Shown here in pieces: positions 13,018 to 46,315 of a stretch of 53,144 nucleotides of DNA. How positions within the stretch are numbered: position 1 is the stretch's first letter; each line of letters begins with the position of its first letter. The DNA lies in assembly GCA_040290255.1 (NCBI GenBank), contig PSMU01000007.1:1-53144 (forward strand). The letters run 5' to 3'. A program made the translations under genes and the position numbers. The notes beneath the pieces were generated by a model. The model saw only the letters and a program-made list of their open reading frames with translations, was not told the origin of the DNA and searched no databases. This DNA is from Nitrososphaerota archaeon. GTDB taxonomy: Archaea; Thermoproteota; Nitrososphaeria; PSMU01.

Positions 13018-13545
13018 TTGAGCGAGCAGGAGAAGCTCAAGGCCGTCATGAGGCGCGTCCCGCAGGGCGTCACCGTGATCGCAACTTCCTACCTGGGCAG
13101 GCTATGGGGCCTCACCGTCAGCTCCTTCACCTCCCTCTCGCTGGAGCCGCCTCTGGCGCTCGCCTGCATCTCCAAGTCCTCCAAGGTGCATGGGCCGCTC
13201 ACCAGCGCGCCTTATTTCTGCGTGAACGTGCTGGCGGAGGACCAGGCGGAGCTCTCCGAGCTCTTCGCCGGGAGAAGGCAGGTACAGGGCGATAGGTTCT
13301 CCGAAGTGCGGTATAGGCTAACGGCGAGGGGGCTGCCGCTGCTGGAGGGAGCTCTGGCCTGGCTCGAGTGCGAAAGATGGGCGGTCTATGATGGGGGGGA
13401 CCACACGATCTTGGTGGGCCGCGTCCTCGACGGCGGGCTAGGGCCCGAGGGCAGGCCGCTGGTGTATTATGGGCGCAGGTACGCCGCGCTCTCCGAGCGC
13501 GAGGCCGCCCTGCTCTTCGCGGGGCCGGAGCTGGGCGAATGGTAG
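13018..13545 (+). CDS. hpaC: HpaC-type flavin reductase
   Basis: GVTVI, GLTVSSFTSLSLEPPL, GGDHTILVG, PLVY. Confidence 0.9.
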   Translation: MSEQEKLKAVMRRVPQGVTVIATSYLGRLWGLTVSSFTSLSLEPPLALACISKSSKVHGPLTSAPYFCVNVLAEDQAELSELFAGRRQVQGDRFSEVRYRLTARGLPLLEGALAWLECERWAVYDGGDHTILVGRVLDGGLGPEGRPLVYYGRRYAALSEREAALLFAGPELGEW

Positions 13546-13573
13546 CTTATTAAACGGCCCGTGATGAGGGCTT

Positions 13574-15089: not shown

Positions 15090-15139
15090 GGCCGCAGATG
15101 GGCCCTTGCTGCCGCTAAAAGCCTTCCGCCCGCGGCTGG

Positions 15140-16820: not shown

Positions 16821-16822
16821 CC

Positions 16823-17704: not shown

Positions 17705-17710
17705 GGCCCG

Positions 17711-19036
17711 CTAGGAGATGGGCGAGAAGCTCGCCTCGGCTACATCGCTCGGCCAGATGACCTTGGCCCTAACCTCACCCAGCGAGGCGTTCCAGTAGAA
17801 CTGCTGGGCGAACAGCAGCCACTGCACCTCCCTGAACTGCGGGTCGAATCTCAGCGTGCCGCCCTGCACGGGCAGCGTGAGCTGGGGCATGCTGAGGCCC
17901 TGCAGCGCCTGTATCACCGCGGCCTTATCCTTCGTTCCTGCCGCTTCGAAGGCCTTCGCAGCGATATACACGGCATCGTAGGCCGAGACGCCGAGCAGGC
18001 CCGGCAGCGTATTGTGGCGCTGCTGGAACTTCTGCCTTATCTCCTGCCACTTCTTGAACTGGTCCCCCTTGGGAATTGCATATGTCGCGTAAAGGCTGAC
18101 GATGGTGACGCCGTTGCCGGCAGGGCCCACGTTCTTGTAGAAGCTAGGGTCGTCGTTGCAGGCGCAGATGGGCCCTATCTGGGCCTTGATCTGCACCTCG
18201 TTCACGGCCTGCTTTATCATATTGATCGCCTCGGAGGTGAAGCCCATGGGGATCAGCACATCAGGCCCCAGCGCCTTTATTTTGGTGAGCACGGCCCTGA
18301 AGTCCGTCTCGCCTATCTTGAACTTCTCGCTGGCCACCAGCGTGAGCGGGTAGCCCTTCTGGGCCACGCGCTGCACATAGCCCGTGAAGAAGTCCCTCCC
18401 GAAGGCGGAGTCCTGGTACAGCCAGGCCACCGTCAGGTTCCTGGTGGGCGCCACGGAGGGCCGAACGACCTGGGCCAAAAAGTCCGCGATGGCCTGCCCA
18501 TACTGCAGGCCGGTGGCCTGGTAATGAAAGACCATGTACTTGGTTGGGTCAGCGCTGTAGTTGGCCATCCTCGTCAGCTGGGGCGTGGAGGGGGTCGCGA
18601 TATAGGGTATCTTATTTTGGATGACCACGGGCAAGGCCGCCAGGGCAAAGGCGCTCCCGAGCCCTCCTATGACTATGTCCACCTGATCCTGGACGACGAG
18701 CTTGGTCATGGCGCTGACGCCGCCCTATGTGCTCGACTGGTCATCGGCCACGACAAGAGTAAGGTTGAACCTCCCGCCCTCCTTGCTCAAGAAGATGCCG
18801 CCCGCGGCATTTATCTCCTCCACCGCGAGCATTGCGGCGCGCTGCTGGTCGAGCCCCGAAGCGCTGCCCGCGCCGGTGAGCGAAGTCATAAGGCCGATCT
18901 TGATCGTGCCCTTCAGCGGTGGCGGGAGCGAGGTATAGTAGTAGGTTAGGCCGATGACCACCGCTAGCACCACGACCACGATCAGGGCGATGGCCGAGGA
19001 GCGAGCGATGGCCGGGCTTAGGCCACGCTTCTTCAA
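17711..19036 (-). pseudogene. livK: LivK-like substrate-binding protein interrupted by one in-frame TAG at 18725-18727
   Basis: ORFs 18725-19036 and 17711-18709 share a frame and read through as VADDQSST*GGVSAMTKLV; N-terminal anchor then IKIG...LTG...EINAAGGI. Confidence 0.8.
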
Positions 19037-19068
19037 TAGCTAAGGATAGCCTCGTTTATTTATAAACC

Positions 19069-20526
19069 TTAGCCGATGCCGTGCATTGCGCTAAGCGCGT
19101 TTAACTTTGCCAGCTGTTTCCTCACCAAGTCCTGATACGGGGCTTTGTCCGCCATCGAGTAGTAAGCCATCTTCAGCCTCACGGGGTCGCCCGCGTGGAA
19201 CGTCTCGTACTGCAGCTGCCGGGCCCCGAATTGGTCCGCCACGGCATCGTAGGCCAGCCTAAAGAGCGAAAGCTTCTCCTTGGCGCTGATCCCCTTGCCC
19301 CTCATGTACCTCTCTAGGTATTGGCTCACCTCTGGGTTGCTTAGGTCAGCCTGCGTGGGCAGCATTACCATCCCGCTGGCCATCAGCTGCCTTATTATCT
19401 CCGCAAAGCGGGGGAAGATGTGGGTGCCGGCGATGAGCCTGGCGAAGATTATCCTGCGGTAGTCGGGCATGAGCAGGCCCGAGCGAGGCTGCGGAAGCGG
19501 GGAGACCTCTATGCCCCTAAGCGCGTCTTCAAGGAGGCCGGTGTAGAAGAGCATCTCGCCCAGCTTCTCCTGCACATGCTGCACGTCCGCGATGCCTATA
19601 TAGTCCGCCATAAGCGAGGCCAGGCCGAAGAGGAACCTAAGCTTGACCACCGCCCTGATCAGGGCAGTATAGCCCGCCCAGGCGATGAACTTCGGTATTA
19701 TCCTATAGCTGAACTTGGCGGCGCCCCTTCCGTATAGGAAGACCCTGTTCCAGGGCACTAGGACGTCGTCGAAGACCACTAGGGCATCCGCCTCGTCGTA
19801 GAGCGCGGCCAAAGGGTGATCCAGGGGCGAGCGGCCCCTCACGTAATCCTCCCTGCAGATGACCTTCAGGCCCTCCGTATTGAGCGGAATGCAGAACCAG
19901 GCGGAGATCTCATCCTCATCCTCCCTGGGCATGAAGGCGAAGACCAGCAGCTCGTTGGAGATGGGCGCGAGCGTGGCCACCTGCCTGGCGCCCCTGACCA
20001 CGATCCCCTTCTCGTTCTCGTCCACCACGGCCACGTCGCCGTTCTCCTTCCGGCTCTTGGTCCTGTCCACCTGGGGCGGCACAAAGGCATGGGTGAGGCA
20101 GAGGTCCTCCCTCCTGCAGAAGAAGTAGAACTCCCTGGCGTTCCTAGCTAGGCGGGGATTGAAGTCCTCTAGCTCAAAGCTGATGTTATACAGCCCCACC
20201 ATCATCGCCGAGAGAAAGTCGGGGGCGCGGCCCAGCAGGCCGGCCGTCTCCTCATGCCAGAGCTGACAATACCTCCTCATCGCGGACAGGTCTTCTAGGG
20301 TCCTCGTCAGCCTGAAGATATTGCCGAACCTTTCGCCCCCCTCCTCGTAGGTCATCGCCTCCCTGTGTGAAGGATGGTGCTGCAGGTCATACAGCGACGC
20401 GATCGTCCCTATGATGTGCCTGAACGCCTCCTCGGACGTAACGTCCTCCACCCTTCTGCCCCTTAGATAGACCGTCCTGCTGTCCTTCAGCGACTCTATA
20501 TATTGGGCCCCCGTCCTTACGCCCAT
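19069..20526 (-). CDS. hpaB: 4-hydroxyphenylacetate 3-monooxygenase family oxygenase component, copy 2
   Basis: RTG.QYIESL.D.R.VY..G, GRAPDF, THAF.PPQVDR, DE.DA.VVFDDVLVPW.RVF, RQLQYE.F..GDP. Confidence 0.9.
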   Translation of the reverse strand: MGVRTGAQYIESLKDSRTVYLRGRRVEDVTSEEAFRHIIGTIASLYDLQHHPSHREAMTYEEGGERFGNIFRLTRTLEDLSAMRRYCQLWHEETAGLLGRAPDFLSAMMVGLYNISFELEDFNPRLARNAREFYFFCRREDLCLTHAFVPPQVDRTKSRKENGDVAVVDENEKGIVVRGARQVATLAPISNELLVFAFMPREDEDEISAWFCIPLNTEGLKVICREDYVRGRSPLDHPLAALYDEADALVVFDDVLVPWNRVFLYGRGAAKFSYRIIPKFIAWAGYTALIRAVVKLRFLFGLASLMADYIGIADVQHVQEKLGEMLFYTGLLEDALRGIEVSPLPQPRSGLLMPDYRRIIFARLIAGTHIFPRFAEIIRQLMASGMVMLPTQADLSNPEVSQYLERYMRGKGISAKEKLSLFRLAYDAVADQFGARQLQYETFHAGDPVRLKMAYYSMADKAPYQDLVRKQLAKLNALSAMHGIG

Positions 20527-20545
20527 GGCCCGCGCTGTAGTGACG

Positions 20546-20568
20546 GGGATATAAAATTGATGTATCCC
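20546..20568. promoter_or_regulatory. Imperfect palindrome GGGATA-N11-TATCCC over the divergent hpaB2/hpaD promoter
   Basis: GGGATATAAAATTGATGTATCCC overlaps the minus-strand TATA of hpaB2; the hpaD TATA (TTAAAT) is at 20581. Confidence 0.45.
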
Positions 20569-20608
20569 AGCGGGCAAGCCTTAAATTTCATTCCTGCGCC
20601 TGGGCCAT

Positions 20609-21601
20609 ATGAAGAGGGCCCCGTTTACGATCACGCGGATAGGGCATGTGGAGCTCTTCGTGCCCGATGTGGAGCGATGTCGTTGGTTCTACTCCGAGCT
20701 CATAGGGCTCGTCGAGAGCGAGGGCTCTTCCAGCGAGCTCTACCTGAGGGGCGTAGAGGAGCGCTGGCACCACTCCTTGGCGCTCAAGAAGGGACAGGCG
20801 CCGCTGCTGCACCACATCGCCTTCAAGCTCTCCAGCCCCGAGGATATCGATAGGGCGGCCGAGTACTATGAAGGCATGGGCCTAGAGGTGCAGAGGCTGA
20901 AGGCCGGAGCGGAAAAGGGCCTGGGCGAGGCCATCAGGTTCCAGGACCCCCTGGGCTTCCCCATCGAGCTTTACTACGAGATGGAGGAGGTCGAGAGGCA
21001 GCTCCAGAGCTTTCACCGGCATAGGGGGGTCGCGCCCGCGAGGATCGACCACGTGAACGTCTTTTACCCGGACGTGGAGCGGGCATACCAGTACTACACA
21101 CAGGGCCTAGGCTTCACCCTCACGGAATACGTGGAGGACGTGGACGGCTCGAAGTGGGCCATCTGGCTCGAGAGGAAAAACAACGTCCACGACATCGCCG
21201 TCATGACAGGCGAGGGCCCCCGGCTGCACCACGTCGCCTTCTGGCTTTACGACATCACGAGCGTGATAAGGCTCTGCGACCTGCTCGCCTCCGCTGACCT
21301 GCAGGATGCCATGGAGAGGGGGCCGGGGAGGCATGGGCTCTCCAACGCGCTCTTCCTTTACGTCAGGGACCCCGCGGGGCACAGGGTTGAGTTCTACACG
21401 GGCGATTATCTGGTGGCCGACACGAACTGGAAGCCCATCAGGTGGTCGATCAAGGACCGCAGGTACACGAACTTCTGGGGGCATAGGCCCCCTCTATCGT
21501 TCTTTCAGGATGCAACGCCCGTGCTCTCCCTCAGGAGCGGCACGCCCGTGCCCACGAGCAGCCCTAAGGCCCTCTCGGACCGTCCTCCCTTCGTCCACTA
21601 G
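20609..21601 (+). CDS. hpaD: Homoprotocatechuate 2,3-dioxygenase (VOC extradiol dioxygenase)
   Basis: YLRG.EE..HHSL, R.DH.N, HDIA...G.GPRLHH.AF, ERGPGRHG.SNA.FLY.RDP.GHR.E.YT.DY. Confidence 0.9.
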   Translation: MKRAPFTITRIGHVELFVPDVERCRWFYSELIGLVESEGSSSELYLRGVEERWHHSLALKKGQAPLLHHIAFKLSSPEDIDRAAEYYEGMGLEVQRLKAGAEKGLGEAIRFQDPLGFPIELYYEMEEVERQLQSFHRHRGVAPARIDHVNVFYPDVERAYQYYTQGLGFTLTEYVEDVDGSKWAIWLERKNNVHDIAVMTGEGPRLHHVAFWLYDITSVIRLCDLLASADLQDAMERGPGRHGLSNALFLYVRDPAGHRVEFYTGDYLVADTNWKPIRWSIKDRRYTNFWGHRPPLSFFQDATPVLSLRSGTPVPTSSPKALSDRPPFVH

Positions 21602-22586
21602 CCCCGGGAGAAGCCTTAACGATCCTGTTCCTTATGAGCCCCAGCCGCTCCACTTCGGCCTCCACCACGTCGCCGGGCCTGAGGTACCAAGAAGCATCAT
21701 CGGCCTCCAGCTCCCTCTCCAGCGCGGTCCCCTCGCAGGTTCCGGAGGTGAGAACGTCGCCTGGAAAGAACGTGAGGTCCCTCGAAAACCATGAGAGCAG
21801 CTCCTCAAAGCTCCTTATCATCTCCGCCGTGCTGCCGCGCTGCCTCAGCTGGCCGTTTACGCGCAGCTCCATCCGCAGGGCATACACGTCCTGCACCTCC
21901 TGCTTGGGCACGACGCAGGGGCCCAGGCAGGCGCCCGTGTCGAAGTTCTTCCTCATGGGCAGCGAAAGCGTCTCCTTCGGGTCCTGGTCATCCCTAAGCG
22001 AATAATCTATGAAGACGGAGTAGCCATAGATGAACTCGCCGGCCCTATCCTTGGGCACGTCCCTGCACCTTTGGCCCACGAGCGCCGCCACCTCCACCTC
22101 ATAGTCCAGCTTCGTAGTCCTCGCGGGATAGACCACATCGTCGTAGGGGCCCACGAGCACGTGGGGCAGCTTCAGGAAGGCGCCGGGCAGCTGGCCCAGG
22201 ACCCAGCGCCGGGCCTGCTCCTCCGTCATCCTCCTCACGCGGGCCGTATGAGATGCGAAGTTCACGGCCGCGCACACCAGCTTGCTGGAGGGCGAGGGCA
22301 GCGGAGGCAGCAGCCTTACCTGCCCCAGCCTATGTATGTAGTTCGCCTCTGTGCCCTTGCCCAGGGCATCTAGAACGCGCCGGGCCTGCTCGAGCCCCTC
22401 CTCGCCGCTGGCGATGAAGGAGGATAAGGCCGGCGGAAAGAGGGCCTGCGCCCGGGCCCTCTTCTCGCTGCTGTCCCCTTCGCCCAACAGCGCCGCGTGG
22501 GCCGCCGCAAGGTCCACGATGCGGCCATCCTCAAGAAGGGCTCCCAGCTTCGGGCCCGGCTCGAAGAGCACGAGGCGAAGCGCCAT
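21564..22586 (-). CDS. Fumarylacetoacetate hydrolase family protein
   Basis: N...H, FLK, DYEVE, D.S.RD, K.FDT, PGDV..SGT..G. Confidence 0.9.
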   Translation of the reverse strand: MALRLVLFEPGPKLGALLEDGRIVDLAAAHAALLGEGDSSEKRARAQALFPPALSSFIASGEEGLEQARRVLDALGKGTEANYIHRLGQVRLLPPLPSPSSKLVCAAVNFASHTARVRRMTEEQARRWVLGQLPGAFLKLPHVLVGPYDDVVYPARTTKLDYEVEVAALVGQRCRDVPKDRAGEFIYGYSVFIDYSLRDDQDPKETLSLPMRKNFDTGACLGPCVVPKQEVQDVYALRMELRVNGQLRQRGSTAEMIRSFEELLSWFSRDLTFFPGDVLTSGTCEGTALERELEADDASWYLRPGDVVEAEVERLGLIRNRIVKASPGASGRREDGPRGP

Positions 22587-23864: not shown

Positions 23865-25433
23865 GTGCGCTGGAGAACGATACCCCAGCTCATAGCCGAG
23901 GCGGCGGAGCGAGGGGGCGAGGCCACATTTCTCTACTATAGGCGGCGCAGGATCAGCTTCAGGGCGCTTCACCTGCGCTCAAGTGCGGTGGCCAACGCGC
24001 TGCTCGAGCTGGGGCTCAGGAGGGGAGATAAGCTCGGCCTTCTCCTGCCCAACTGCCCCGAATTCCTCTACGCCTGGTTTGGGGCCTCTAAGGCCGGCAT
24101 AGTCTGTGTGCCCATCAACATCCAGCTGAAGTCTCATGAAGCGGCCGAGCTGCTGCGCCACTGCCGCGCCAGGGCCCTCGTCGTCTCACAGGGGATGGCG
24201 AGCTATGCCGACCTGCTGAGGGAAGCCTGCCCTCAGCTCGAGCACATCATCTGGGCCAATGCCTCAGGAGCCCCAGGCCCCTCCTTAGAGGAGCTGATGA
24301 AGAGCCAAGAGCCCCTCCCCCCGCCCGTGGCCGTAACGCCCGAGGATGATGCCTGTATCATCTATACCTCTGGCACCACGGGAAGGCCGAAGGGGGTCGT
24401 GCTGGCGCACCGCACGTACACGCTCACGGGCGAGGCCTTCCCCTATTGGCTGGGGCTCACCAAGCAGGACAGGCTCTATACCTGCCTTCCGCTGTACCAT
24501 ATCAACGCCCAGGCCTATACAATAATGGGCGGCCTCGCGCTGGGGGCAAGCGTGGTGCTTTCGGAGCGCTTCAGCGCGAGCCGCTTCTGGCAGGAGCTCG
24601 CGGAGTACGGCGCTACGCAGTTCAACTTCATAGGCGCGATGCTGCTCATCCTGGCTAAGCGTCCCCCGAGCGAGGCCGAGAGGGCCCACAACGTCAGGCT
24701 GGCCTACGGCGTCCCCTGTCTTCCGGAGCAGCAGAGGCAGGAGCTGGAGAGGCGCTTCAACCTGAGGATAGTCTTCGGCTATGGGCTCACGGAATCTACC
24801 TTCGGCTTCATCGAGCCCCTCGAGGGTCCCAGGAGGCCCATGAGCGTAGGCCTCCCAAGACAGCATCCCCTGCAGAGCTTCAACGAGGCTAAGATCGTCG
24901 ATGAGCAGGGCAGGGAGCTGCCGCCTGGCAGCGTGGGCGAGATCGTGTTCAGGAACCCAGCCATCATGAAGGGCTACTACGGCGAGCCCGAGCTCACGAA
25001 GGAGGCGCTGAAGGATGGCTGGCTGCACACGGGCGATCTTGGCTACAGGGATGAGGAGGGGTTCTTCTATTTCGTGGACAGGAAGAAGGACATCATAAGG
25101 CGAAGGGGCGAGAACATATCATCCCAGGAGGTCGAGGTCGTGCTCGCCTCTCATCCCAAGGTCCGGGAGTGCGCCGTGATCCCCGTGCCCTCCGAGCTGA
25201 GCGATGAGGAGGTAAAGGCCTACGTGGTCCCCATGCCCGGCGTCGAGCTCGACGCAAGGGAGCTCTTCGAATGGTGCTCGCGGAGGATGGCCTCCTTTAA
25301 GGTGCCGCGCTTCATAGAACTCCGCGAGGCCCTGCCCAAGACGCCCACCGGAAGGGTGGCGAAGTACCTCCTCAGGCAGGAGCGCGAGCCCAAGGGGCCC
25401 TGCTTCGATAGGGAGCAGCTGGCCCAGAGATAG
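23865..25433 (+). CDS. Acyl-CoA synthetase, CaiC (crotonobetaine/carnitine-CoA ligase)-like
   Basis: YTSGTTGRPKG, FSASRFW, YGLTE, TGDLG, DRKKD.IRRRGENIS, P.TPTG. Confidence 0.9.
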   Translation: MRWRTIPQLIAEAAERGGEATFLYYRRRRISFRALHLRSSAVANALLELGLRRGDKLGLLLPNCPEFLYAWFGASKAGIVCVPINIQLKSHEAAELLRHCRARALVVSQGMASYADLLREACPQLEHIIWANASGAPGPSLEELMKSQEPLPPPVAVTPEDDACIIYTSGTTGRPKGVVLAHRTYTLTGEAFPYWLGLTKQDRLYTCLPLYHINAQAYTIMGGLALGASVVLSERFSASRFWQELAEYGATQFNFIGAMLLILAKRPPSEAERAHNVRLAYGVPCLPEQQRQELERRFNLRIVFGYGLTESTFGFIEPLEGPRRPMSVGLPRQHPLQSFNEAKIVDEQGRELPPGSVGEIVFRNPAIMKGYYGEPELTKEALKDGWLHTGDLGYRDEEGFFYFVDRKKDIIRRRGENISSQEVEVVLASHPKVRECAVIPVPSELSDEEVKAYVVPMPGVELDARELFEWCSRRMASFKVPRFIELREALPKTPTGRVAKYLLRQEREPKGPCFDREQLAQR

Positions 25434-25477
25434 CCTGCGCCGGCCCAAAAGGCTATAAGGCGCCTCCGCGTGAAACC

Positions 25478-26422
25478 GTGCCCGGCCTGAAGCTCCTCTT
25501 CTGCACGGACCTGCATGCCAGCGATGCGTACCTCTTCAAAATCATATCCTACGCGAAGAGCTTCAAGGTCGATGTCCTCATCATCTCGGGGGACCTAACG
25601 GGCAAGGCCCTCGTGCCCATCGTCAGGCTCCCCGATGGCTCATATAAGGCCCAGCTTTTCGGGAGGGAGGAGAGGTTCGGTGAAGAGGCCCTGCCCGCCA
25701 TGAAGCAGGCCATAGCCCGGGCGGGCTACTATGCCCGCGTGTGCACCCAGCAGGACTATCAGAGGATGAAGGAGGACGAAAGGCTGCGCGCCGAAGCATT
25801 CCGCAGCGCTATGGTCGAGAGGCTGGAGGCGCAGATAGCCCAGCTCGAGCGGGAGCTGCCTCCCGAGGTCACCGTCATCATGAACCCAGGCAACGACGAC
25901 GAATTCTTCGTGGACGACGTGCTGAAGCGTGCCGAGCGCGTTAAGTATACGATAGGCCAAGTCGAGGAGCTGGGCGACTTCAGGCTGATCTCCTGCGAGT
26001 GGGTAAACCCGACGCCCTGGAACTCACCGCGGGAGTGTGAGGAGGATGAGCTCCTGAAGAGGCTCCAGGCCGAGTTCGAAAGGGCGGGGTCCACCGAGAG
26101 GTTGCTCTGCGACTTTCATGCGCCTCCCTTCAGGACCACGCTGGACCTGGCGCCCAAGCTCGACAGAAACCTGAGGCCTAAGAGAAACCTTTTCGGACAG
26201 CCCGTGTTCGAGCATGTGGGCAGCAAGGCCGTCAGGAAGGCCCTCGAGGAGTACCAACCGCTGCTTTCGCTGCACGGGCACATTCACGAATCGCCGGGCT
26301 CCTACACGCTGGGCAGAACCACATGCCTTAACCCGGGCTCGGAGTATGAGGAGGGAATTATGCATGGCTACCTCGTAATTTTAGGCCATAATTTAGACTA
26401 CAAGCCGGTTATAGGGGCTTAG
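25478..26422 (+). CDS. Calcineurin-like metallophosphoesterase with a helical insertion
   Basis: DLH, GDLTGK, PGNDD, HAPP, HGHIHE, NPGS motifs. Confidence 0.9.
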   Translation: MPGLKLLFCTDLHASDAYLFKIISYAKSFKVDVLIISGDLTGKALVPIVRLPDGSYKAQLFGREERFGEEALPAMKQAIARAGYYARVCTQQDYQRMKEDERLRAEAFRSAMVERLEAQIAQLERELPPEVTVIMNPGNDDEFFVDDVLKRAERVKYTIGQVEELGDFRLISCEWVNPTPWNSPRECEEDELLKRLQAEFERAGSTERLLCDFHAPPFRTTLDLAPKLDRNLRPKRNLFGQPVFEHVGSKAVRKALEEYQPLLSLHGHIHESPGSYTLGRTTCLNPGSEYEEGIMHGYLVILGHNLDYKPVIGA

Positions 26423-26457
26423 GTTTAAATAAAGAGCCCGTGCGCACCGGCCCAGAT

Positions 26458-28074
26458 GTGGGGGAAGAGATTAAGGTAGAGCTCTTCCTTCGCAAGGCTA
26501 CAGGCCTCGTTAAGGAGATAGGGCCCGCGGGGGCCTTCATCCTGCCCTGGGCGACGATGGCGGGCAGCGGCATCACCTTCTATTCCCTTCAGCTCATATA
26601 CCTTTACCCCAACGCGAGCGTTCCGCTTGCCTTCCTCATCGTGGGGGTTCCGTCCATCGTTAACGCCATCATCATAGCGCTGCTCGCCATCTGCATGCCC
26701 AGGTCCGCGGGCGGGTACGTGTGGTCGACCAGGCTCGTGGACCCCGCGCTGGGCTGGCTGGGCGCGGGCTGGATCTACTGGCTCACATACATCTTTACCG
26801 TTTCCCTGGTGGCCTACGTCATGGCCAGCGTCTACTCGACCATCCTGACGGTGATGGGCGTGGCCCTGGGCTCGCAGGCCCTGAAGTCTTATGGCCTCGC
26901 GCTCTCGACCAACACGACGGCCCAGCTCGAGTTCGTCTTCCTGCTCATCATCATCTTCGGCCTGCTATCGCTGTTGGAGCTGAAGCATTATCTTAAGGTG
27001 CTGTATGTGATCTGGGGGCTCAACGCCCTCGGCCTTATCGCCTCCATGGTGCTCTTTGCCGCCAACTCGCCCTCCACCATACCTGCCCGGTGGGACGCCT
27101 TCTGGGGCGCTGGCTCCTACCAGACGATCCTGAACCTCGCGGCCAAATATAACGCGACCGGCTACGTCGCCAAGACCACGGCCGGGCTCTGGGGCGACAC
27201 GCTGGGCGCGGTCGCGTACATCTTCTGGGCCGTGACGGGCTACGAAAGCCTGGCGTACGTTGCAGGCGAGGTCAGGAGCCCGCGGCCGGCCTTCCTAAAG
27301 TGGTATCTGGCCGGCATGGTGGGCACCGTGGTCTGGTACGCCCTCGTCTCCGGGCTCGCCTATGGGGCCTATGGAGACTTCATCTTCAAGTACAACTTCG
27401 TCTATAACCTATATAGCTCGGGCTCCCTCTCCTCGAACGAAAGCGCGGCCGTTGCCTCCTATATGATAAGCCCCAGCATGCCGCTCTTCGCCGCCACGCT
27501 GGCCGGCGGGGGGCTTCTGGGCGTGATAGCGGCGTGGTGGTTCTGGCCCCTGAACGTGATCATGGTGAGCTATCTAGTCGCCACCAGGAGCATCTTCGGC
27601 ATGGCCTTCGACAGGATGTTCCCCTCCGCCTTCGGCAAGGTCAGCGAGAGGACGCACACGCCCATCTACGCCACGCTCTTCAACATCGTCGTCTCGCTCA
27701 TCTGGGCCGCCATCATGTACACCTCCTTTGGGTACTTCGTGAGCGCCGCGAACACCAGCTTCTGGACCGCCTTCTACTACCTGATCTTCAGCATCGCCGC
27801 CATGATGCTGCCGTATAAGAGGCCGGAGCTCTGGGAGAAGGGCCTCAAGAAGGCCATCTTCGGCGTACCCGAGACGACCCTGCTGGGCGCCCTCTCGGCG
27901 GCCGGCATGCTGTGGATCCTCAGCCTCAGCACGCTGGGCATAAGCCTGACCGCGTGGAACGTCAGCGTCTTCTGGATGTTCATAGGCATCCTCATCTTCG
28001 TCTACTACGTGCACAAGACCGAGAAGAAGGGCATCAAGGTGGCGGAGCTCTATAAGGAGGTGCCGCCGCCCTAA
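26458..28074 (+). CDS. APC family amino acid/amine permease
   Basis: FLRKATGLVKEI, MPRSAGGYVW..R, GE.R.P, R.IF.MAFDR.FP..F; about 12 TM; TTTAAATA box at 26424. Confidence 0.9.
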   Translation: MGEEIKVELFLRKATGLVKEIGPAGAFILPWATMAGSGITFYSLQLIYLYPNASVPLAFLIVGVPSIVNAIIIALLAICMPRSAGGYVWSTRLVDPALGWLGAGWIYWLTYIFTVSLVAYVMASVYSTILTVMGVALGSQALKSYGLALSTNTTAQLEFVFLLIIIFGLLSLLELKHYLKVLYVIWGLNALGLIASMVLFAANSPSTIPARWDAFWGAGSYQTILNLAAKYNATGYVAKTTAGLWGDTLGAVAYIFWAVTGYESLAYVAGEVRSPRPAFLKWYLAGMVGTVVWYALVSGLAYGAYGDFIFKYNFVYNLYSSGSLSSNESAAVASYMISPSMPLFAATLAGGGLLGVIAAWWFWPLNVIMVSYLVATRSIFGMAFDRMFPSAFGKVSERTHTPIYATLFNIVVSLIWAAIMYTSFGYFVSAANTSFWTAFYYLIFSIAAMMLPYKRPELWEKGLKKAIFGVPETTLLGALSAAGMLWILSLSTLGISLTAWNVSVFWMFIGILIFVYYVHKTEKKGIKVAELYKEVPPP

Positions 28075-28085
28075 GCCTATCGAGC

Positions 28086-28838
28086 GTGAGCGGTGCACTC
28101 GAGGACATAAGGCTGGAGGCCAGGGAGCTGGTTGAGCGCGCGGAGGCAGAGGGAATTACCATAAGGCTCCTCGGGGGCTTGGCCGTGGCGCTGCACTGCA
28201 ACAGCGCCTCCAGGCCCGGCCTGGCGAGGGAGTATGTGGACATAGACTTTGCCGGCTATGGGCGCCAGGCCAGGGCCATAAAGCGGTTGCTGGAGGCAAG
28301 GGGCTATAGGCCCAACGAGATGTTCAACGCAATAAGGGGAGGCAGGCGGCTAATGTACTTCGACCTGAAGAACAGGAGACGGGTCGACGTCTTCCTAGAC
28401 AAGTTCAGCATGTGCCATACCATAGACCTGCGCCCAAGGCTTCCGCTGGGCCGCCTCACGCTGCCGCTCGCCGACCTCCTGCTGACCAAGCTGCAGGTCT
28501 TTCAGACCTCACAGAAGGACGTGCTGGATATCGCCGCCATCCTGCTCGACCATGATGTGGCGCTGGAGGAGGGGCACGAGGTCGTGAACGGGCCCTACAT
28601 CGCCGAGCTGTGCTCTAGGGACTGGGGCCTCTACAGGACGAGCAGGGGCACGGCCGAACGATGCATGGCCCTTCTGCCCCAGATCCCCCTGCGGCAGGGC
28701 GAAGGGGAGCTGATCGCCAGGCGGCTCGGGCTCCTGCTCGAGCTCATTGAGAGCCGGCCTAAGGGACTGCGCTGGAGGCTAAGGGCCAAGCTCGGCGAAA
28801 GGATTCGATGGTATAACCTTCCCGAGGAGCCCGAGTAG
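28086..28838 (+). CDS. Uncharacterised Pol-beta superfamily nucleotidyltransferase
   Basis: RLLGGLAV..H, REY.DIDF (GG plus DxD), RVDVF (third Asp), DLLLTKLQ, KD..D. Confidence 0.75.
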   Translation: MSGALEDIRLEARELVERAEAEGITIRLLGGLAVALHCNSASRPGLAREYVDIDFAGYGRQARAIKRLLEARGYRPNEMFNAIRGGRRLMYFDLKNRRRVDVFLDKFSMCHTIDLRPRLPLGRLTLPLADLLLTKLQVFQTSQKDVLDIAAILLDHDVALEEGHEVVNGPYIAELCSRDWGLYRTSRGTAERCMALLPQIPLRQGEGELIARRLGLLLELIESRPKGLRWRLRAKLGERIRWYNLPEEPE

Positions 28839-28839
28839 C

Positions 28840-30399
28840 CTAAGAAGCCTGGAGATCGGAGAGCGCCGTGCGCGCGGCCAGATAGCCGGGCGCGCCCGTG
28901 ACCCCTCCCCCTGGGTGCGCCCCGGAGCCGCAGAGATAGAGCCCCTTGATGGGCGTCCTATACTGGCTGAGGCCCGGCAGGGGCCTGAAGAAGAGCAGCT
29001 GCGAGGGCATGATGTCCACGTGAAAGATGTTCCCCTTGGGCAGCGAAAAGATGCGCTCCATGTCCAGCGGCGTAAGCACCTCCATCCTCTCCACGGCGCC
29101 GCTCATGTTGGGCGCGTATTCGCAAAAGGTCTCCAGCACCCTGCGCGCGGCCTCCTGCTTCTTCTCCTCCCAGCTCCCCTCCCTCAGGCGATAGGGGAAG
29201 TACTGTGCGAAGATGGACATCGTGTGAAGGCCGGGCGGGCAGAGGCCAGGGTCCGAGACCGAGTGGAAGACCACCTCCATAAAGGGCCGCCTCGACATAT
29301 GGCCATACTTGGCATCATCATAGGCCCTCTCCAGATACTCTAGGCTCGGGGCTATGTCCGTCGTGCCCTGGTGCTGGGGGCCCGGACCCTTGCCCGGCAG
29401 GGCCCTATAATCGGGCAACTCCCTGACCACGCCGTTGATCTTGAGCACGCACCCCTCGTCCTTGACCCACTCGAGCCTCCTGGCCAGTTCCCGGTCAAGG
29501 TGCTCGGAGCCCACCAGCTTCAACAGCGTCTGCTTGGGGTCCGCGCTCGAGAGCACTAGCTTTGCCTCATACCTCCTGCCGTCCTCGAGCTCAACGCCTC
29601 TTGCCGTGCCCTCCTTCACCAGCACGCGCCTCACCGCCACGCCCGTGAGGATCCGCGCGCCATAAGATATCGCTGCATCTCTGAGCGCGTCTATGAGCCG
29701 GCCCAGGCCCCCCTTCACATAGGCCCAGGCCCCCCTCACGCCGTTCACCTTGCCCAGCACATGGTGGCCCAGCACGTAGGCCGTGCCGGGGCTCATGGGC
29801 CCCGCCAGCGTGCCTATGATGGCCTGCGTGGCAAAGGCCGCCTTCACCTCCTCGGACTCAAAGTATTCGTCCAGCAGGTCCTTCGCGCTGAAGAAGAGCA
29901 GGCGCCTCATCACCTCCTGGGCCTCTATATCGCCCAGCAGCTCGCCCAGCGCCTGCACCGGAGGTGGTGGTGAGAGGAAGAGCAGGTCGAAGAGCTCGCC
30001 CACGCGGTCCCAGAAGGCGGCGTACTCGAGATAGGCCCTGGCATCCCGCTCCGAGAACTTGGCGATCTCCCGGGCCGTCCTGCGCCTATCGTTCCAGAGG
30101 AAGAGGTACCTGCCGTCCGGAAATGGTATGAAGGAAAAGGGCTCGTGCACCACGAGCTCCAGGCCCCTCTCCCTCAGCCGCAGCTCCTCCACGATCTCCT
30201 CCCTGAAGAGGCCATACGCATAGGCCAGCCTGTTGATCTTACAGCCCGGCCAGAGCTCCTCCGTCACGCTGGCCCCGCCCAGCACGGGGCGCCGCTCGAC
30301 CAAGAGCGTCCTGAGGCCGGCCTTGGCCAGGTAGCAGGCCGCGACCAGCCCGTTGTGCCCGCCTCCTATGATTATTGCGTCGAAGCCGGCGTTCTGCAC
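28840..30399 (-). CDS. Phytoene dehydrogenase-like FAD oxidoreductase
   Basis: GGGHNGLVAA.YLA, GGAS.TEE, TPLD.E......GNIFH, LYLCGSGAHPGGGV.G.PG. Confidence 0.9.
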   Translation of the reverse strand: MQNAGFDAIIIGGGHNGLVAACYLAKAGLRTLLVERRPVLGGASVTEELWPGCKINRLAYAYGLFREEIVEELRLRERGLELVVHEPFSFIPFPDGRYLFLWNDRRRTAREIAKFSERDARAYLEYAAFWDRVGELFDLLFLSPPPPVQALGELLGDIEAQEVMRRLLFFSAKDLLDEYFESEEVKAAFATQAIIGTLAGPMSPGTAYVLGHHVLGKVNGVRGAWAYVKGGLGRLIDALRDAAISYGARILTGVAVRRVLVKEGTARGVELEDGRRYEAKLVLSSADPKQTLLKLVGSEHLDRELARRLEWVKDEGCVLKINGVVRELPDYRALPGKGPGPQHQGTTDIAPSLEYLERAYDDAKYGHMSRRPFMEVVFHSVSDPGLCPPGLHTMSIFAQYFPYRLREGSWEEKKQEAARRVLETFCEYAPNMSGAVERMEVLTPLDMERIFSLPKGNIFHVDIMPSQLLFFRPLPGLSQYRTPIKGLYLCGSGAHPGGGVTGAPGYLAARTALSDLQAS

Positions 30400-30437: not shown

Positions 30438-31484
30438 TTAGGGCTTCAGCACCGCCCGGCCTAGATAGCGTCCCCCTTGTAGCTCCTGCAGCACCCGGTT
30501 CACTTCCTCCAACGGCGCCAGCCTGCCGATATGCGAGCGCACCTTGCCTTGCTCATAGAGCGCCAGCAGCTCCTCGAACTCGTGAGGAAGGCCTACGAGC
30601 GAGGGCAGGACTCGAATCCCCTTGGCCAGCAAAAAGTCGGGCGAGGCGGGCAGGGGTCCCTGCTCCTCGGCCGGCGAGCCCACCGCTATGAGCGCGCCCG
30701 GCGGGCTGAGCAGCCTCAGCGCTAGGCCGTAGGCCTCTATGGTGGGCGCAAGGACGAGCGCCGCGTGCACGTCCTTTGCCTTTGCCCTAAGCGCACCCAC
30801 TCCTTCCTCCGCGTCGAGCGCCACATCCGCCCCCAATTCCTCCACAAAACGAACCCTGGCGGCGCCCTTCTCTATGCCCAGGACGGCGTACCCGAAGGCC
30901 TTCGCGATCTGCACGGCATAGTGGCCCAGGCCCCCGGCGGCCCCCAGCACGGCCACCTTCCTGCCGGGAGGAAGACCTACATCCGTAACGAGCTTACGCA
31001 CCGCCCCATAGGCGGTCAGCCCCCCGCAGAGCAGGCCCGCCGCCTGCTCATATGAGAGGAAGGCCGGTATGGCCCTGGCCCCCCTCTCGCTCACAATGGC
31101 GTATTCCGCATAGGTGCCGTTCAGGTGAACCGAGGTCTCCCTGAGCTCCTCGCACCACTGGGGCGCGCCCGAGCTGCATGCGTAGCAGAGCCCGCACCAG
31201 TGGTTCATCCAGCCGATCCCTACCCTATCGCCCTCGCTGAAGCGCCTCACCCCGAGTCCCACCTCTTCCACCTCCCCGACGCCCTCGTGGCCCAGCACCC
31301 GCACCCCCAGCCTCTCCATGTCACGCTTGGCGCCGGGCCAGTGCCCCTTCCATAGATGCAGGTCCGTGCGGCATACCCCCGTCGCCCTGATCCTCACCAG
31401 CAGCTCGCCGGGGCCAGGCCTTGGCCTCGCCAGCTCCTCGAGCACCAGCGGAGCCGCCCACCCCCTTAGGCAGGCCGCCTTCAT
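30438..31484 (-). CDS. Zinc-dependent alcohol dehydrogenase (AdhP-like)
   Basis: GVC.TD, GHEG.G, C..C..C...C, C.G.T.Y, GA.GGLG. Confidence 0.9.
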   Translation of the reverse strand: MKAACLRGWAAPLVLEELARPRPGPGELLVRIRATGVCRTDLHLWKGHWPGAKRDMERLGVRVLGHEGVGEVEEVGLGVRRFSEGDRVGIGWMNHWCGLCYACSSGAPQWCEELRETSVHLNGTYAEYAIVSERGARAIPAFLSYEQAAGLLCGGLTAYGAVRKLVTDVGLPPGRKVAVLGAAGGLGHYAVQIAKAFGYAVLGIEKGAARVRFVEELGADVALDAEEGVGALRAKAKDVHAALVLAPTIEAYGLALRLLSPPGALIAVGSPAEEQGPLPASPDFLLAKGIRVLPSLVGLPHEFEELLALYEQGKVRSHIGRLAPLEEVNRVLQELQGGRYLGRAVLKP

Positions 31485-31533
31485 GGCCTCCGAGGGCCTC
31501 GGCTCCCTAAAAGGCCTTTGGGCATGATACAAA

Positions 31534-31552
31534 TTTTTTACTAAGTAAAAAA
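31534..31552. promoter_or_regulatory. 19-bp palindrome TTTTTTACT-A-AGTAAAAAA between divergent promoters
   Basis: Perfect 9-bp inverted repeat, 7 nt upstream of TTTAAAA (31560-66) of the VOC dioxygenase gene. Confidence 0.7.
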
Positions 31553-31588
31553 CAACAACTTTAAAACCCCCTACCGCCCAGCTGCGGC

Positions 31589-32653
31589 GTGCAGGAGCTA
31601 GCGGGGCTCGTGAAGGGCCTCCATCATATCACGCTGGTCACCTCCAACGAGGAGGTGAACAGGAGGTTCTACACGGAGGTCCTCGGCCTCAGGAGGGTAA
31701 AGCTCTCCGTGAACCAGGACGATATCTTTCACCGTCATATCTTCTACGGAGATGAGCGAGGTAGCACGGGCAGCGTCATTACCTTCTTCGAGTGGCCGGA
31801 CCTTCCGAGGGGCATAGTTGGCCTCCATTCCCCTCATCACCTGGCATACCAGGTGGCCGGGGTCGAGGCATTGCCCAAGTGGAGGGCATGGCTCAGGGCA
31901 AATGGGGTGCCCTGCTCCGAGCTCGTGGTGAGGGAGGATAGGGTCTCCCTGTATCTTAGGGACCCCGATGGCGTGCTGATCGAGATCACGGCCCCCAACC
32001 TAGAGCGGCTGGGGAAGGGCTATGTAGAGGAGCTGGCGCGCGAAGTGCCGGAGGTCACCTCGATAGGCCCCGATATGAAGCTGCTAAAGTTCGAACACGC
32101 GGCCCCTGTGACCGGCGATCATGAGATAACCAGAAGGTTCTTCGAAAAGTTCCTCGGCCTGGGGAGCTTTTCGCTCAGGCCTAACCCTGATCAGCCAGGG
32201 ACGAGCCTGGCGCTCATCGGGGGTGCTGATGGACACCTCTTCATGAGCTACCTCTCTTCGCCCAACGCGCCCGTGGGCTTTGTGGGCACAGGCAGCGTGC
32301 ACCACATCGCGATGGCCGTGGAGGATACACAGGACCAGCTTAGAATTATGAGGAGGCTCGAGGCCGCAGGCATAAGGACCTCGGGCATCATCGACAGGTT
32401 CTGGTTCAGGTCGCTGTACTTCAGGGATCCCCACGGGAACCTGTTAGAGATAGCCACGAGGGGCCCTGGTTATACCGTCGACGAACCCCCCGAGCTGCTG
32501 GGCTCTAAGCTCATCCTGCCTCCCTGGCTCGAGCCCCACAGGGCCACGATAGAGCGGAGCCTCCGGCAGCAGGACGAAAGGAATAGGCCGCGCTGGCCGC
32601 CCTCCTATCCGCCGCTGCCACTGCCGCCCGAGAGCCTGGCGCCCTCCTCTTAA
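31589..32653 (+). CDS. Ring-cleaving dioxygenase, VOC/glyoxalase family (MhqA/MhqO-like)
   Basis: GLHHIT, FYT..LGL..VK.SVN.DD, TFFEW, G.G.VHHIA, IDR.WF.SLYFR.P.G.L.E.AT.GPG, L.LPPWLE. Confidence 0.9.
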   Translation: MQELAGLVKGLHHITLVTSNEEVNRRFYTEVLGLRRVKLSVNQDDIFHRHIFYGDERGSTGSVITFFEWPDLPRGIVGLHSPHHLAYQVAGVEALPKWRAWLRANGVPCSELVVREDRVSLYLRDPDGVLIEITAPNLERLGKGYVEELAREVPEVTSIGPDMKLLKFEHAAPVTGDHEITRRFFEKFLGLGSFSLRPNPDQPGTSLALIGGADGHLFMSYLSSPNAPVGFVGTGSVHHIAMAVEDTQDQLRIMRRLEAAGIRTSGIIDRFWFRSLYFRDPHGNLLEIATRGPGYTVDEPPELLGSKLILPPWLEPHRATIERSLRQQDERNRPRWPPSYPPLPLPPESLAPSS

Positions 32654-44621: not shown

Positions 44622-46223
44622 CTATTCCGGCGGCAGCTCCCTGAAGATCAGGTTTATGTCTAGCCCCCTTCTTGCATGATAGGCCCTGCTGCGAAAGTAG
44701 ATGGCGAGCGTTATCAATATGATGCCGATGACCACGGCGACCCCGAGCGTCGTTGGCGTGCTGATCAGCGGGTTGGTGATCGCTACATAGCCCAAATACG
44801 CGAACGAAAGGGCGGTCAGCAGGCCCAGCAGGCTCAGCAGCGGCATGCCTAAGAGCCTCCTGCGCAGGAAGCCGGGCGCTCCCTCCAGCAGGCCAGGCCG
44901 CCTAAGCGGCAGCAGCAGGGCAGCTATTCCCGGCACAACGAAGGATATGCCCCAGAGGAACGTGCCAAGCGCAAAGGCCGTGGGCCAAGAAGTGAAGTAG
45001 TAGAGCACAAAGAGCACGGCCGCGAGTCCCGAGATGGCCGCTATCGAGTAATGAGGGGCATGATACCTCTGGTGCACGTCCGCGAAGCGTGTCGGTATGA
45101 TCCTATCAAAGGACCACGCGAAGAAGTAACGCGTTGGAATCCAGAAGTAAACAAAGGGGGCCACCGCCGAACCGACTAGGTAGGTCAGTATGGCCAGGGC
45201 CGTGAGAGCCTGATTAGGATAGGAAATCAGTGCCAAGAGCAGCGGTTCGGTCGGAGGGTAGGGCATGACGCTGCTGTAGGCCGTCTGGTTATTATCCCAG
45301 AGGTAGCCCACCGCATACATCCAGTTCTCGCCCGTGGCCTTCAGCGTTAGCGCTGCCGTGATACTCCAGTAGGCTATCCCGAAGAACAGTGAGAGGAGCA
45401 GGGCCAACGGGATTGCCCTCCTCACGCCCTTTATCTCTCCCGCTATGACATCCACGAAGTTGCCACCGAACAGGAAGAGCGCGGCCAGCGGAAGGCTGGC
45501 CAGCGTGGCTTGTAGCCCGCCGGGAGCACCGCTCCAGCCGGACCGGGTGGCCTGTTCTACGAGCCCATCATAGGTGACGAACTGGCCCAGCACCCTGTTC
45601 CAGTTTGAGGCCAGAAGCGCCGGAGAGGCCGCCGCCAAAAGCCCCCACATCACTACTATCCCGACTATCTCTATCCCCCAGAAGATGTAGAGAAAGCGCC
45701 TTACGGCGCGGCTGCCAAAGAGCGAGAGCACGGCAAAGAGCAGCGTCAGTAGGACGGAGAGCGCCAGCTCCCCGACGGGGGCGCTGAGCCAATCGCCCGC
45801 GGAGCTAAGGCCGGTCAGGCCATAAAGGCGCCCCCAAATGCTCAGGGAAGTCGATATGGCATACGCATATGCGGCCGTCCCTCCCACATAGGCCGTTACG
45901 AAGACCGAGAACATGTATAGGGCCGACCATGAGAAGCCAACTGTTGGATGCAGCAGCCTGCTGACCCAGATATAATCGTTGCCTGCCCTGGGCATCAACA
46001 CGCCTATGCCCCAATAGCAGAGCATCAGGATCAGGAAGGGAATCGCGGCCAGCACTAGCGCCAGCGGAAGGTTGGCGCCAGGATTAAAGCCGTAAAACCA
46101 TGGGAACTGTAGGGTTGTGAAGACCAGCGCGAAGACGGCGGCCGAGGCCATCAGGAGGGCATCCACCGAGCCGAATTCCTTCACTAGGCCCGTCGCCTCC
46201 CTTACGAAGACCCTCTGGCCCAT
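44622..46223 (-). CDS. APC family amino acid permease
   Basis: FVREATGLVKE, MPRAG.DY.W.SR, R..FAWSFDR..P..FA.V, F.ELPPE. Confidence 0.9.
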   Translation of the reverse strand: MGQRVFVREATGLVKEFGSVDALLMASAAVFALVFTTLQFPWFYGFNPGANLPLALVLAAIPFLILMLCYWGIGVLMPRAGNDYIWVSRLLHPTVGFSWSALYMFSVFVTAYVGGTAAYAYAISTSLSIWGRLYGLTGLSSAGDWLSAPVGELALSVLLTLLFAVLSLFGSRAVRRFLYIFWGIEIVGIVVMWGLLAAASPALLASNWNRVLGQFVTYDGLVEQATRSGWSGAPGGLQATLASLPLAALFLFGGNFVDVIAGEIKGVRRAIPLALLLSLFFGIAYWSITAALTLKATGENWMYAVGYLWDNNQTAYSSVMPYPPTEPLLLALISYPNQALTALAILTYLVGSAVAPFVYFWIPTRYFFAWSFDRIIPTRFADVHQRYHAPHYSIAAISGLAAVLFVLYYFTSWPTAFALGTFLWGISFVVPGIAALLLPLRRPGLLEGAPGFLRRRLLGMPLLSLLGLLTALSFAYLGYVAITNPLISTPTTLGVAVVIGIILITLAIYFRSRAYHARRGLDINLIFRELPPE

Positions 46224-46315
46224 TTTGATGGCGAGCGACGTGCCGTTGCTATCTATAATTGCCACAGCGTGACCACAGCTTCAGGCTTAAGAGGCGGGGC
46301 ACATCACGCCCCGCC

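Follow-up and report, generated by a model that had tools for sequence, protein, structure and literature searches.

A metallophosphoesterase, a tail-bearing APC permease and a nucleotidyltransferase that recur together in archaea and bacteria: a candidate nucleotidylyl switch at a transporter

Three consecutive genes on a contig of a Nitrososphaerota archaeon (PSMU01000007.1 of assembly GCA_040290255.1, positions 1 to 53,144, referred to here as the window) encode a calcineurin-like metallophosphoesterase (MPE, 25478..26422, +, 314 aa), a permease of the APC superfamily (26440..28074, +, 544 aa) and a nucleotidyltransferase with a Pol-beta-type fold (NT, 28086..28838, +, 250 aa). Judged from the comparison of sequences and genomes, the three genes are best read as one functional unit, which consists of a dedicated clade of APC permeases and two constant accessory enzymes. 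We tentatively propose that the two enzymes would add and remove a nucleotidyl group at the permease. All three proteins come from large known superfamilies, and their combination behaves as one inherited unit.

The open reading frames (ORFs) of the trio are co-oriented in the ORF list of the window and lie at the positions given for them in an earlier note, which had been made from the sequence alone. Counted from the first in-frame GTG of the permease (26440), the gap behind MPE is 17 nt; the 35 nt of the earlier note correspond to an alternative in-frame GTG start at 26458, while its 11 nt between the permease and NT are exact. A co-oriented acyl-CoA ligase (23865-25433) ends 44 nt upstream of MPE, and a convergent flavoprotein resembling CrtO and amine oxidases (28840-30399, -) follows NT. 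No HEPN or antitoxin-like gene was found next to NT among these flanking genes, as the earlier note had stated.

Conservation of the gene neighbourhood and whole-genome co-occurrence

Homologous loci were collected by scanning one genome per species with a 9-sequence alignment of NT as query. This yielded 584 confirmed NT relatives, from which the best 80 loci were kept, and 56 of these carry at least 3 kb on both sides of NT (well-flanked loci). In 47 of the 80 loci, MPE is no more than 300 nt away from NT, and a limit of 2.5 kb raises this number to 58; the permease is found at up to 2.6 kb in 44 loci, and 37 loci have both partners. The earlier note had described the trio as recurrent in other archaea and some bacteria and had named a neighbourhood survey as a check; the recurrence is borne out by the 56 well-flanked loci, in which MPE was found 46 times, the permease 34 times, both together 31 times and neither 7 times, as well as by the co-occurrence in two phyla described below. 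By group (loci/MPE/permease/both), the counts are 18/12/13/10 for Bathyarchaeia, 23/19/7/7 for Nitrososphaerota, 8/8/8/8 for Chloroflexota, 3/3/3/3 for Asgard archaea and 1/1/1/1 each for Actinomycetota and Sysuiplasma. The trio extends over Bathyarchaeia, Nitrososphaerota, Asgard archaea, Thermoplasmatota, Chloroflexota and Actinomycetota. Its order and orientation vary, with co-oriented and divergent arrangements and with the permease either between or outside the enzymes; in the actinobacterial loci, MPE starts directly where NT stops. Blind clustering of the 1,061 ORFs from the 80 loci recovered NT in 75 loci, MPE in 52 and APC in 43, and every other family was confined to 12 loci or fewer. 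The term 'orphan', which the earlier note had applied to NT, is misleading, as the enzyme has two constant partners.

Two families of small ORFs were seen downstream of the permease in Bathyarchaeia, Anaerolineae and Atabeyarchaeia (e.g., L019:5937-6895, L076:10429-11070 and L069:6875-7857). One encodes proteins of about 170 aa and occurs in 11 loci; the other encodes hydrophobic proteins of about 155 aa and occurs in 9 loci. Neither family has a Pfam match, and both are absent from the copy in the window.

The association was also found at the level of whole genomes. Within the phylum of the window's organism (201 genomes), NT is present in 28 genomes, full-length MPE in 27 and the clade permease in 29, and the same 27 genomes have all three; the corresponding numbers for Actinomycetota (401 genomes) are 52, 49 and 52, with the same 49 genomes having all three, counts that are descriptive because related genomes are not independent. 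Two of the Actinomycetota genomes (G251 and G353) are unpublished, and without them all three genes are found in 47 of 399. A further 78 MPE matches in the window's phylum (E 1e-11 to 1e-24) are partial and correspond to shorter phosphoesterases. The exceptions there are one genome in which NT contains an in-frame TAG and in which both MPE and the permease are missing (G079), and two genomes with weak permease matches that end before the C-terminal tail described below (G042 and G221); the odd cases among Actinomycetota comprise a 2,978-base contig (G269), fragments (G504, G513 and G628) and one further genome (G543). In several tool-defined families, a single genome out of 6-15 is positive, and this genome carries all three genes.

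The co-occurrence does not depend on linkage. Two families of the window's phylum have NT and MPE in the same genomes although hundreds of kb separate the two genes. Within these unlinked families, a permease-NT pair is adjacent in one locus (L097) and permease-MPE pairs are adjacent in two others (twice in L104 and once in L107); because the permease adjoins either enzyme where NT and MPE are unlinked, it is the hub of the unit. In small genomes, most of the genes with a PF13520 domain are found next to NT or MPE (3 of 4 in G100, 4 of 6 in G072, 3 of 4 in G224, 2 of 2 in G110 and 2 of 18 in G140). Copy numbers can be high and unequal: the 1.2-Mb genome of the window encodes 3 full-length MPEs, 2 NTs and 6 APC proteins, whereas NT, MPE and permease are present in 1, 3 and at least 7 copies in G193, in 1, 2 and at least 7 copies in G092, in 1, 1 and 3 copies in G073, and in 5 copies each in the 1.5-Mb genome G100.

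The genomic setting of the trio varies between lineages and between copies. In the window, it lies in an island for the breakdown of aromatic compounds of the homoprotocatechuate type (5174-22586 and 30438-32653), which encodes two HpaB-type hydroxylases (7045-8517 and 19069-20577), two extradiol dioxygenases (20609-21601 and 31589-32653), an FAA-hydrolase-family protein, a Rieske oxygenase, CoA ligases, a CoA-transferase, a flavin reductase, a meta-cleavage-type hydrolase and a Liv-type ABC importer. Other copies of the module in the same genome are accompanied by an arginase-family gene and two class-III aminotransferases, a formamidase and a hydantoinase B. The settings in other genomes include a gene resembling ornithine carbamoyltransferase together with amidohydrolases, carbamate kinase and a phosphoribosyltransferase (PRTase), as well as a cyclase/formamidase-like gene, gamma-glutamyltranspeptidase and class-III aminotransferases. 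In one Nitrososphaerota lineage, the enzyme pair is located among translation genes (a class-I tRNA synthetase, an Obg-like GTPase and QueC).

Sequence and structural features of the three proteins

The catalytic residues of NT (G30-G31, D52-I-D54 and D101) are invariant among 28 homologues with 41-72% identity, as are some 20 further residues, and the invariant positions include R27, G30, G31, R48, D52, D54, N81, D101, H111, K135, Q137, D148, D179, W180, G181, K226, R233, W242 and Y243. The AlphaFold model (pLDDT 95) shows a two-lobed nucleotidyltransferase of the Pol-beta type, with all hallmarks of this superfamily, namely hG[GS], [DE]-x-[DE], a third acidic residue and the characteristic core; the core aligns with DNA polymerase beta, CCA-adding enzymes and terminal uridylyltransferases at Z 6-8. 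The Pol-beta fold that the earlier note had read from the motifs is therefore supported by both the 28 sequences and the model. Among the best 50 structural matches that were considered, the highest-ranking are MenT1 (Z 12.4), ANT(2'')-Ia (Z 12.0), 5uvd (Z 11.1), LnuA (Z 10.5) and JHP933 (Z 10.2), with TglT/MenT3 (Z 9.7) and MenT4 (Z 9.2) further down. The match to MenT1 aligns 171 residues with an rmsd of 3.6 and 16% identity. A sequence search of solved structures gave no useful match for NT or MPE.

The NT family is large, with 1,044 representative clusters at E <= 1e-30, and on sequence criteria it is related to PF14907 (NTP_transf_5) but peripheral to it, so we do not file it as a member. 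The profile matches residues 10-102 of the window's NT with 23.4 bits (E 5.2e-5), below the gathering cut-off of 31.2, and it matches 23 of the 28 relatives at E <= 0.1, with a best value of 2.2e-8. A phosphonate survey mentions PF14907 as an unexplained neighbour of a phosphonate gene. NT has no curated family, and NCBIfam has no match for it. PF08843 matches only 2 of the 28 relatives (E >= 0.019), which, together with the missing antitoxin, places NT outside the MenT/AbiEii family, and PF10706 matches a single relative (E 0.0096), leaving a similarity in fold alone to the aminoglycoside/lincosamide nucleotidyltransferases. PADLOC returned no match for NT or the permease and, for MPE, only the candidate family PDC-S10 over 42 residues around GHIHES; a reading of the trio as a defence system was rejected, as it is without PADLOC support. 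The family is not generally basic, with a median isoelectric point (pI) of 6.4 and values below 7 in 68 of 118 members; the median lends no support to RNA as the substrate, and overall charge was discarded as a hint in that direction.

MPE belongs to the calcineurin-like metallophosphoesterases (PF00149, 35.8 bits against a cut-off of 21.5). The metal motifs, all of which the earlier note had found in place, are invariant in an alignment of 30 sequences (D11-x-H13, G38-D39, G138-N139-D140-D141, H214 and G267-H268-x-H270). The third motif reads GNDD in all 30 instead of the usual GNH[DE], with Asp replacing the motif His. An additional invariant motif, N177-x-T-P-W...R185-E, is specific to the family, and about 90 residues are inserted between motifs II and III. 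The AlphaFold model (pLDDT 95.1) is closest to aq_1956 (Z 24.3, rmsd 3.4, 235 aligned residues) and TT1561 (Z 23.5), followed by MPPED2 (Z 20.1), Mre11 (Z 19.7; about 18-20 for Mre11-type nucleases), Rv0805 (Z 18.0) and GpdQ (Z 17.9), and Foldseek agrees with these neighbours. The titles of the aq_1956 and TT1561 entries name no function, and we know of no functional study of either protein; the closest characterised neighbours of MPE are phosphodiesterases. While the fold is similar to that of the class III cyclic-nucleotide phosphodiesterases (Z 18-20), their signature GNH[DE] is replaced in MPE, which argues against assigning it to this class.

The permease is a member of the APC superfamily (PF13520, AA_permease_2; 67.6 bits against a cut-off of 27, residues 32-516). 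It scores far below every subfamily cut-off of NCBIfam, including that of TIGR00909 (2A0306; 72.2 bits against 556.8). Its identity to the homologues linked to NT or MPE is 16-27%, rising to 58% for one locus (L013). What these permeases share is a C-terminal tail, which follows a basic stretch and reads G-[IV]-D-x-x-L-x-[FY]-K-E-[IV]-P-P-E-COOH. Across 26 sequences, G531 and P542 are invariant and E540, P543 and E544 nearly so. In the window, the tail (GIKVAELYKEVPPP-COOH, encoded by 28030..28071) ends in ...LYKEVPPP, with P543 and P544 occupying the last two tail columns. The ending [EQ]-I/V/L-P-P-E/P is found in 44 of the 45 full-length permeases of the 80 loci (38 strict and 6 with Q for E). 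The 1,012 ORFs that do not belong to the permease cluster include only 2 with this ending, and one of the two is a fragment of a permease. Exactly 5 ORFs in the genome of the window have this ending, and all of them are APC permeases, whereas the sixth APC gene, which is the one most similar to the Pfam model, is without the tail. At the sequence level, the clade is thus defined by the ...KEIPPE tail rather than by TIGR00909.

A second tail-bearing permease of the clade is encoded in the window itself (44622..46265, -; clade profile E 2.6e-145). It ends in ...LIFRELPPE, is without an adjacent NT or MPE, and has a polysaccharide-deacetylase-family gene and one for an alpha/beta hydrolase as its neighbours.

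Carriers with the APC fold have an N-in/C-in topology; taken together with the basic stretch that precedes the tail, this suggests a cytoplasmic location of the tail. Tail and NT are complementary in charge, in favour of a switch at the permease: the median net charge is -3 over the final 14 residues of the tail and +4 over the conserved NT segment PK...W..R...G....WY. NT itself ends in ...RWYNLPEEPE (28812-28838; family consensus W-Y-x-L-P-E-E), and the C-terminal motifs of NT and the permease ([FY]-K-E-I-P-P-E) are both short, acidic and proline-containing. The NT motif is degraded in three proteins in which NT is fused to MPE (WYKEVEE, WHNDVRE).

These fusions are single chains that begin with NT and end with MPE, and they form 3 protein clusters (P0130 and P0131, 580 aa; P0133, 605 aa). 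In 7 other clusters (P0122, P0123 and P0125-P0129; 527-578 aa), NT is combined with an intact PRTase of the xanthine/hypoxanthine type and a degenerate second copy. The ESM Atlas holds a 92-member cluster of NT-PRTase proteins from 'Microcaldota' archaea, and a stand-alone PRTase was seen in four Nitrososphaerota loci (L031, L067, L080 and L086). Furthermore, 2 clusters join a peroxiredoxin to NT, and 1 cluster has a winged-helix domain ahead of it. Fic domains are protein AMPylators, and a 677-aa Fic-domain cluster of the Atlas aligns to NT with a TM-score of 0.92, which gives a lead only. Long Actinomycetota frames with NT matches, considered as Fic-NT fusions, were rejected as high-G+C artefacts over ordinary permease-NT-MPE operons. 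A 952-aa 'GcvT-MPE' protein (P0132), the middle part of which is permease-like and of low complexity, was set aside as a likely run-through gene call.

A proposed switch at the permease and competing explanations

Several lines of evidence point to NT and MPE as an opposing pair: NT is intact, the relatives of MPE are phosphodiesterases, the two co-occur almost constantly, and in some cases they form a single chain. Moreover, the addition of a nucleotidyl group followed by its hydrolysis would make little sense as a linear pathway. When an NT-type reaction joins a nucleoside monophosphate (NMP) to a hydroxyl, a phosphodiester (NMP-O-X) results. Solute-binding core, genomic context and copy ratios vary, but the enzymes and the tail do not, which argues for a target at the permease, or at a protein bound to it, rather than for the solute as target.

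The explanation that we favour, tentatively, is a cycle at the permease in which a nucleotidyl group is added and removed. NT would transfer NMP from a nucleoside triphosphate onto a hydroxyl of a target common to all solutes carried, for which the permease or a protein docked to it is the most likely candidate, and MPE, acting as a phosphodiesterase, would strip the nucleotidyl group again. The two enzymes would constitute a switch that tunes uptake in the manner of the GlnD and GlnE cycles, with the acidic C-terminal tail serving as a docking or control element. We infer that the enzymes oppose each other, that their target is at the permease and that the tail is the interface. The analogy to GlnD, which the earlier note had drawn, gains support from the NT-MPE fusions and fits the phosphodiesterase neighbours of MPE. 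A broader formulation, possible though doubtful, is that a tail-marked APC clade is gated by its own nucleotidyltransferase/phosphodiesterase pair, as a so far unrecognised control of nutrient uptake in both archaea and bacteria, through either reversible nucleotidylylation or a local nucleotide; the trio would then be a portable 'permease plus switch' cassette for many nitrogen-compound pathways.

A number of observations weigh against such a cycle. None of the protein-modifying nucleotidyltransferases GlnE, GlnD and MntA is among the best 50 structural matches of NT, and the best-ranking entries are MenT1, a toxin that modifies tRNA, together with ANT(2'') and LnuA, which are small-molecule O-nucleotidyltransferases. 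The permease tail is without a conserved hydroxyl residue, and position 21 in the N-terminal segment was the one constant Ser/Thr noticed beyond the membrane core. Within the well-flanked Nitrososphaerota loci, a permease is located within 8 kb in only 7 of 23, and many of these loci have NT and MPE alone. The NT-PRTase fusions are not explained by a switch at a permease, and, as the genomes are related, the co-occurrence counts suggest more independent events than there were.

Besides the reversible NMPylation of a protein, the earlier note had considered an uptake-and-activation route for a phospho-amine. The recurrence of the trio and the Pol-beta fold, two parts of its reading, are borne out. 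This second route is less likely than reversible NMPylation, because one NT can accompany at least 7 permease paralogs, the context changes with the lineage, and nothing points to a phospho-amine.

More generally, NT could O-nucleotidylate the imported solute or a moiety shared by several solutes, trapping, activating or detoxifying it, and MPE could hydrolyse the conjugate. This would agree with the structural likeness of NT to ANT(2'')-Ia (154 aligned residues) and LnuA, and with the invariant residues N81, H111, Q137, D148 and D179-W180, which lie away from the catalytic triad, as in a small-ligand pocket. Both enzymes adjoin permeases and genes of amine and amide catabolism, and NT is fused to a purine PRTase; purine PRTases are classically paired with base permeases. 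However, a nucleotidyltransferase followed by a phosphodiesterase would amount to a futile cycle or an odd path to a phosphate ester, 7 or more diverged permeases can share a single NT, the catabolic contexts have no chemistry in common, and the invariant cytoplasmic tail of the permease is left unexplained. We regard a small-molecule substrate as rather unlikely, albeit as the strongest of the alternatives to a cycle at the permease.

The constant pairing of a putative maker with a putative breaker, even where the two are unlinked, would also be expected if NT made a linear or cyclic nucleotide as a local signal, MPE degraded it, and the permease tail were its receptor. The NT-MPE fusions would then be comparable to bifunctional synthetase-hydrolase enzymes, the similarity of MPE to the nucleotide phosphodiesterases MPPED2 and Rv0805 would fit, and the fused purine PRTase-like domain could sense the nucleotide pool. 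Signal-making nucleotidyltransferases rank below MenT and ANT in the structural comparison, however, with Z 5.4 for 8gjw (the only cGAS-like entry among the best 50), 5.7 for OAS2 and about 7 for Rel. In addition, up to 5 sets of NT, MPE and permease in a single 1.5-Mb genome (G100) would cross-talk unless their products differed, and a profile scan of the permease detected no known nucleotide-binding domain. A signal of this kind is distinctly unlikely.

An RNA-directed pair has still less in its favour. Here, a MenT-like NT would add nucleotides to tRNA 3' ends when amino acids fall, MPE would trim them, and the permease would merely be co-regulated. The best match of NT to MenT1, accompanied by TglT/MenT3 and MenT4, the resemblance of MPE to Mre11-type nucleases and the location of the enzymes among translation genes in one Nitrososphaerota lineage are consistent with this. 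It is nevertheless improbable, given that NT has neither an AbiEi/MenA-type antitoxin beside it nor a PADLOC match, that PF08843 is rare among its relatives, that the family is not generally basic, and that the special permease clade and the three-way co-occurrence would remain unexplained. Finally, three unrelated genes that are neighbours by chance are hardly credible: each gene has an A/T-rich box of its own (see below), so a single transcript is not required, but adjacency in several phyla and in all orientations, the three-way co-occurrence in two phyla and the fusions all speak against coincidence.

If the enzymes do switch the permease, the trio would represent a new mode of transporter regulation and, beside GlnD and GlnE, a second major use of nucleotidylylation in nutrient control. 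If they process the solute instead, the unit would mark an unknown step in the uptake of organic nitrogen by abundant microbes of soil, peat and hot springs. Both enzymes are small and soluble, the motifs to be mutated are known, and the tail peptide is a candidate interface.

Local features of the locus and relation to known systems

Each of the three genes has an A/T-rich box 18-28 nt ahead of a possible start. The box of MPE (CTATAAGG, 25453..25460, +) is a possible archaeal TATA element located 18 nt upstream of the start codon. The box TTTAAATAAA (26424..26433, +) lies directly 3' of the MPE stop and about 25 nt upstream of the GTG at 26458, and it could represent the promoter of the permease. 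A second copy of CTATAAGG (28050..28057, +) is situated in the terminal part of the permease coding sequence, at a distance of 28 nt from the NT start codon that follows; the boxes of MPE and NT are thus the identical 8-mer. The word CTATAAG occurs 3 times on both strands of the window, compared to 4.0 occurrences expected by chance, and two of these three belong to the boxes of MPE and NT. As the word is no more common than expected, only the placement of the boxes is noteworthy. CTATAAGG and TTTAAATAAA may act as promoters, and the shared 8-mer hints that MPE and NT use the same promoter type and that NT is not simply read through from the permease.

The flavoprotein gene that converges on NT lies 1 nt from the NT stop. 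Its product belongs to the CrtO/phytoene-desaturase family and also matches Amino_oxidase (PF01593), and homologues with 40-41% identity adjoin NT in two contigs of a metagenome-assembled genome of Sysuiplasma (Thermoplasmatota; L033:1715-3229 and L036:34-1548). The protein could be an amine oxidase belonging to this copy of the module. The second NT copy of the genome (42% identical) follows genes for a JAB-domain protein and a ThiS-ThiF-rhodanese fusion, with which it is co-oriented at a gap of 37 nt (region L093:6707-9456 on contig C9). The latter two resemble a set for ubiquitin-like protein modification or a sulfur carrier. A formamidase gene comes after this NT copy, and a typical APC gene without the tail lies 2 kb away.

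No paper on the trio was retrieved when the literature was searched for the gene combination, COG2129, TT1561/aq_1956, or MenT together with archaea and phosphodiesterase. Its individual components can be compared to known proteins. The folds closest to MPE are those of aq_1956 and TT1561 (PDB 2yvt and 1uf3), MPPED2, Rv0805 and GpdQ, and the dimetal site of MPE is complete. In comparison to aq_1956/TT1561 and the class III phosphodiesterases, MPE is 50-90 residues longer, carries the insertion described above, and is set apart by GNDD and by its own N-x-T-P-W...R-E motif.

NT shares the two-lobed architecture of the MenT/AbiEii toxins (PDB 8an4, 6j7n and 6y56), among which it has its best match, and its family conserves a TKLQ...KD..D segment (28 sequences) that presumably resembles motif III of these toxins. 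It differs from them in its low identity (16%), in the absence of an antitoxin gene and of a match in the defence library, in its constant MPE and permease partners, and in a three-way co-occurrence across phyla; toxin-antitoxin modules are patchier in their distribution. ANT(2'')-Ia and LnuA (PDB 4xje and 4wh5) are similar to NT in how the catalytic lobe is folded and in the size of this lobe, whereas their identity to it is only 11-17%, a resistance context is missing, and NT has an extra C-terminal helical lobe that ends in PK...W..R...G....WY.

APC permeases with a dedicated cytoplasmic enzyme are known from AdiC/AdiA, PotE/SpeF and ArcD of the arginine deiminase pathway. The trio resembles these pairs in that a carrier of the APC fold is encoded beside dependent enzymes in settings of amine and amino-acid catabolism. 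It differs in having the same partner enzymes whatever the pathway, no evident amino-acid conversion, and an invariant tail.

The closest parallel in layout is provided by the nucleotidylyl switches GlnD/GlnK(PII)/AmtB and GlnE/glutamine synthetase. Common to these systems and the trio are a nucleotidyltransferase of the Pol-beta fold and a removing activity, which sometimes reside in one chain, as in the NT-MPE fusions, as well as a link to a membrane transporter and to the use of nitrogen compounds. In the GlnD and GlnE systems, however, the remover is an HD domain or a second nucleotidyltransferase domain, whereas a calcineurin-type metallophosphoesterase would take this role here; furthermore, neither a PII nor a glutamine synthetase gene belongs to the conserved set of the trio, and its transporter is of the APC rather than the Amt type. 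By analogy, the trio would work like a switch of the GlnD/GlnE type in its layout, without being a member of those families.

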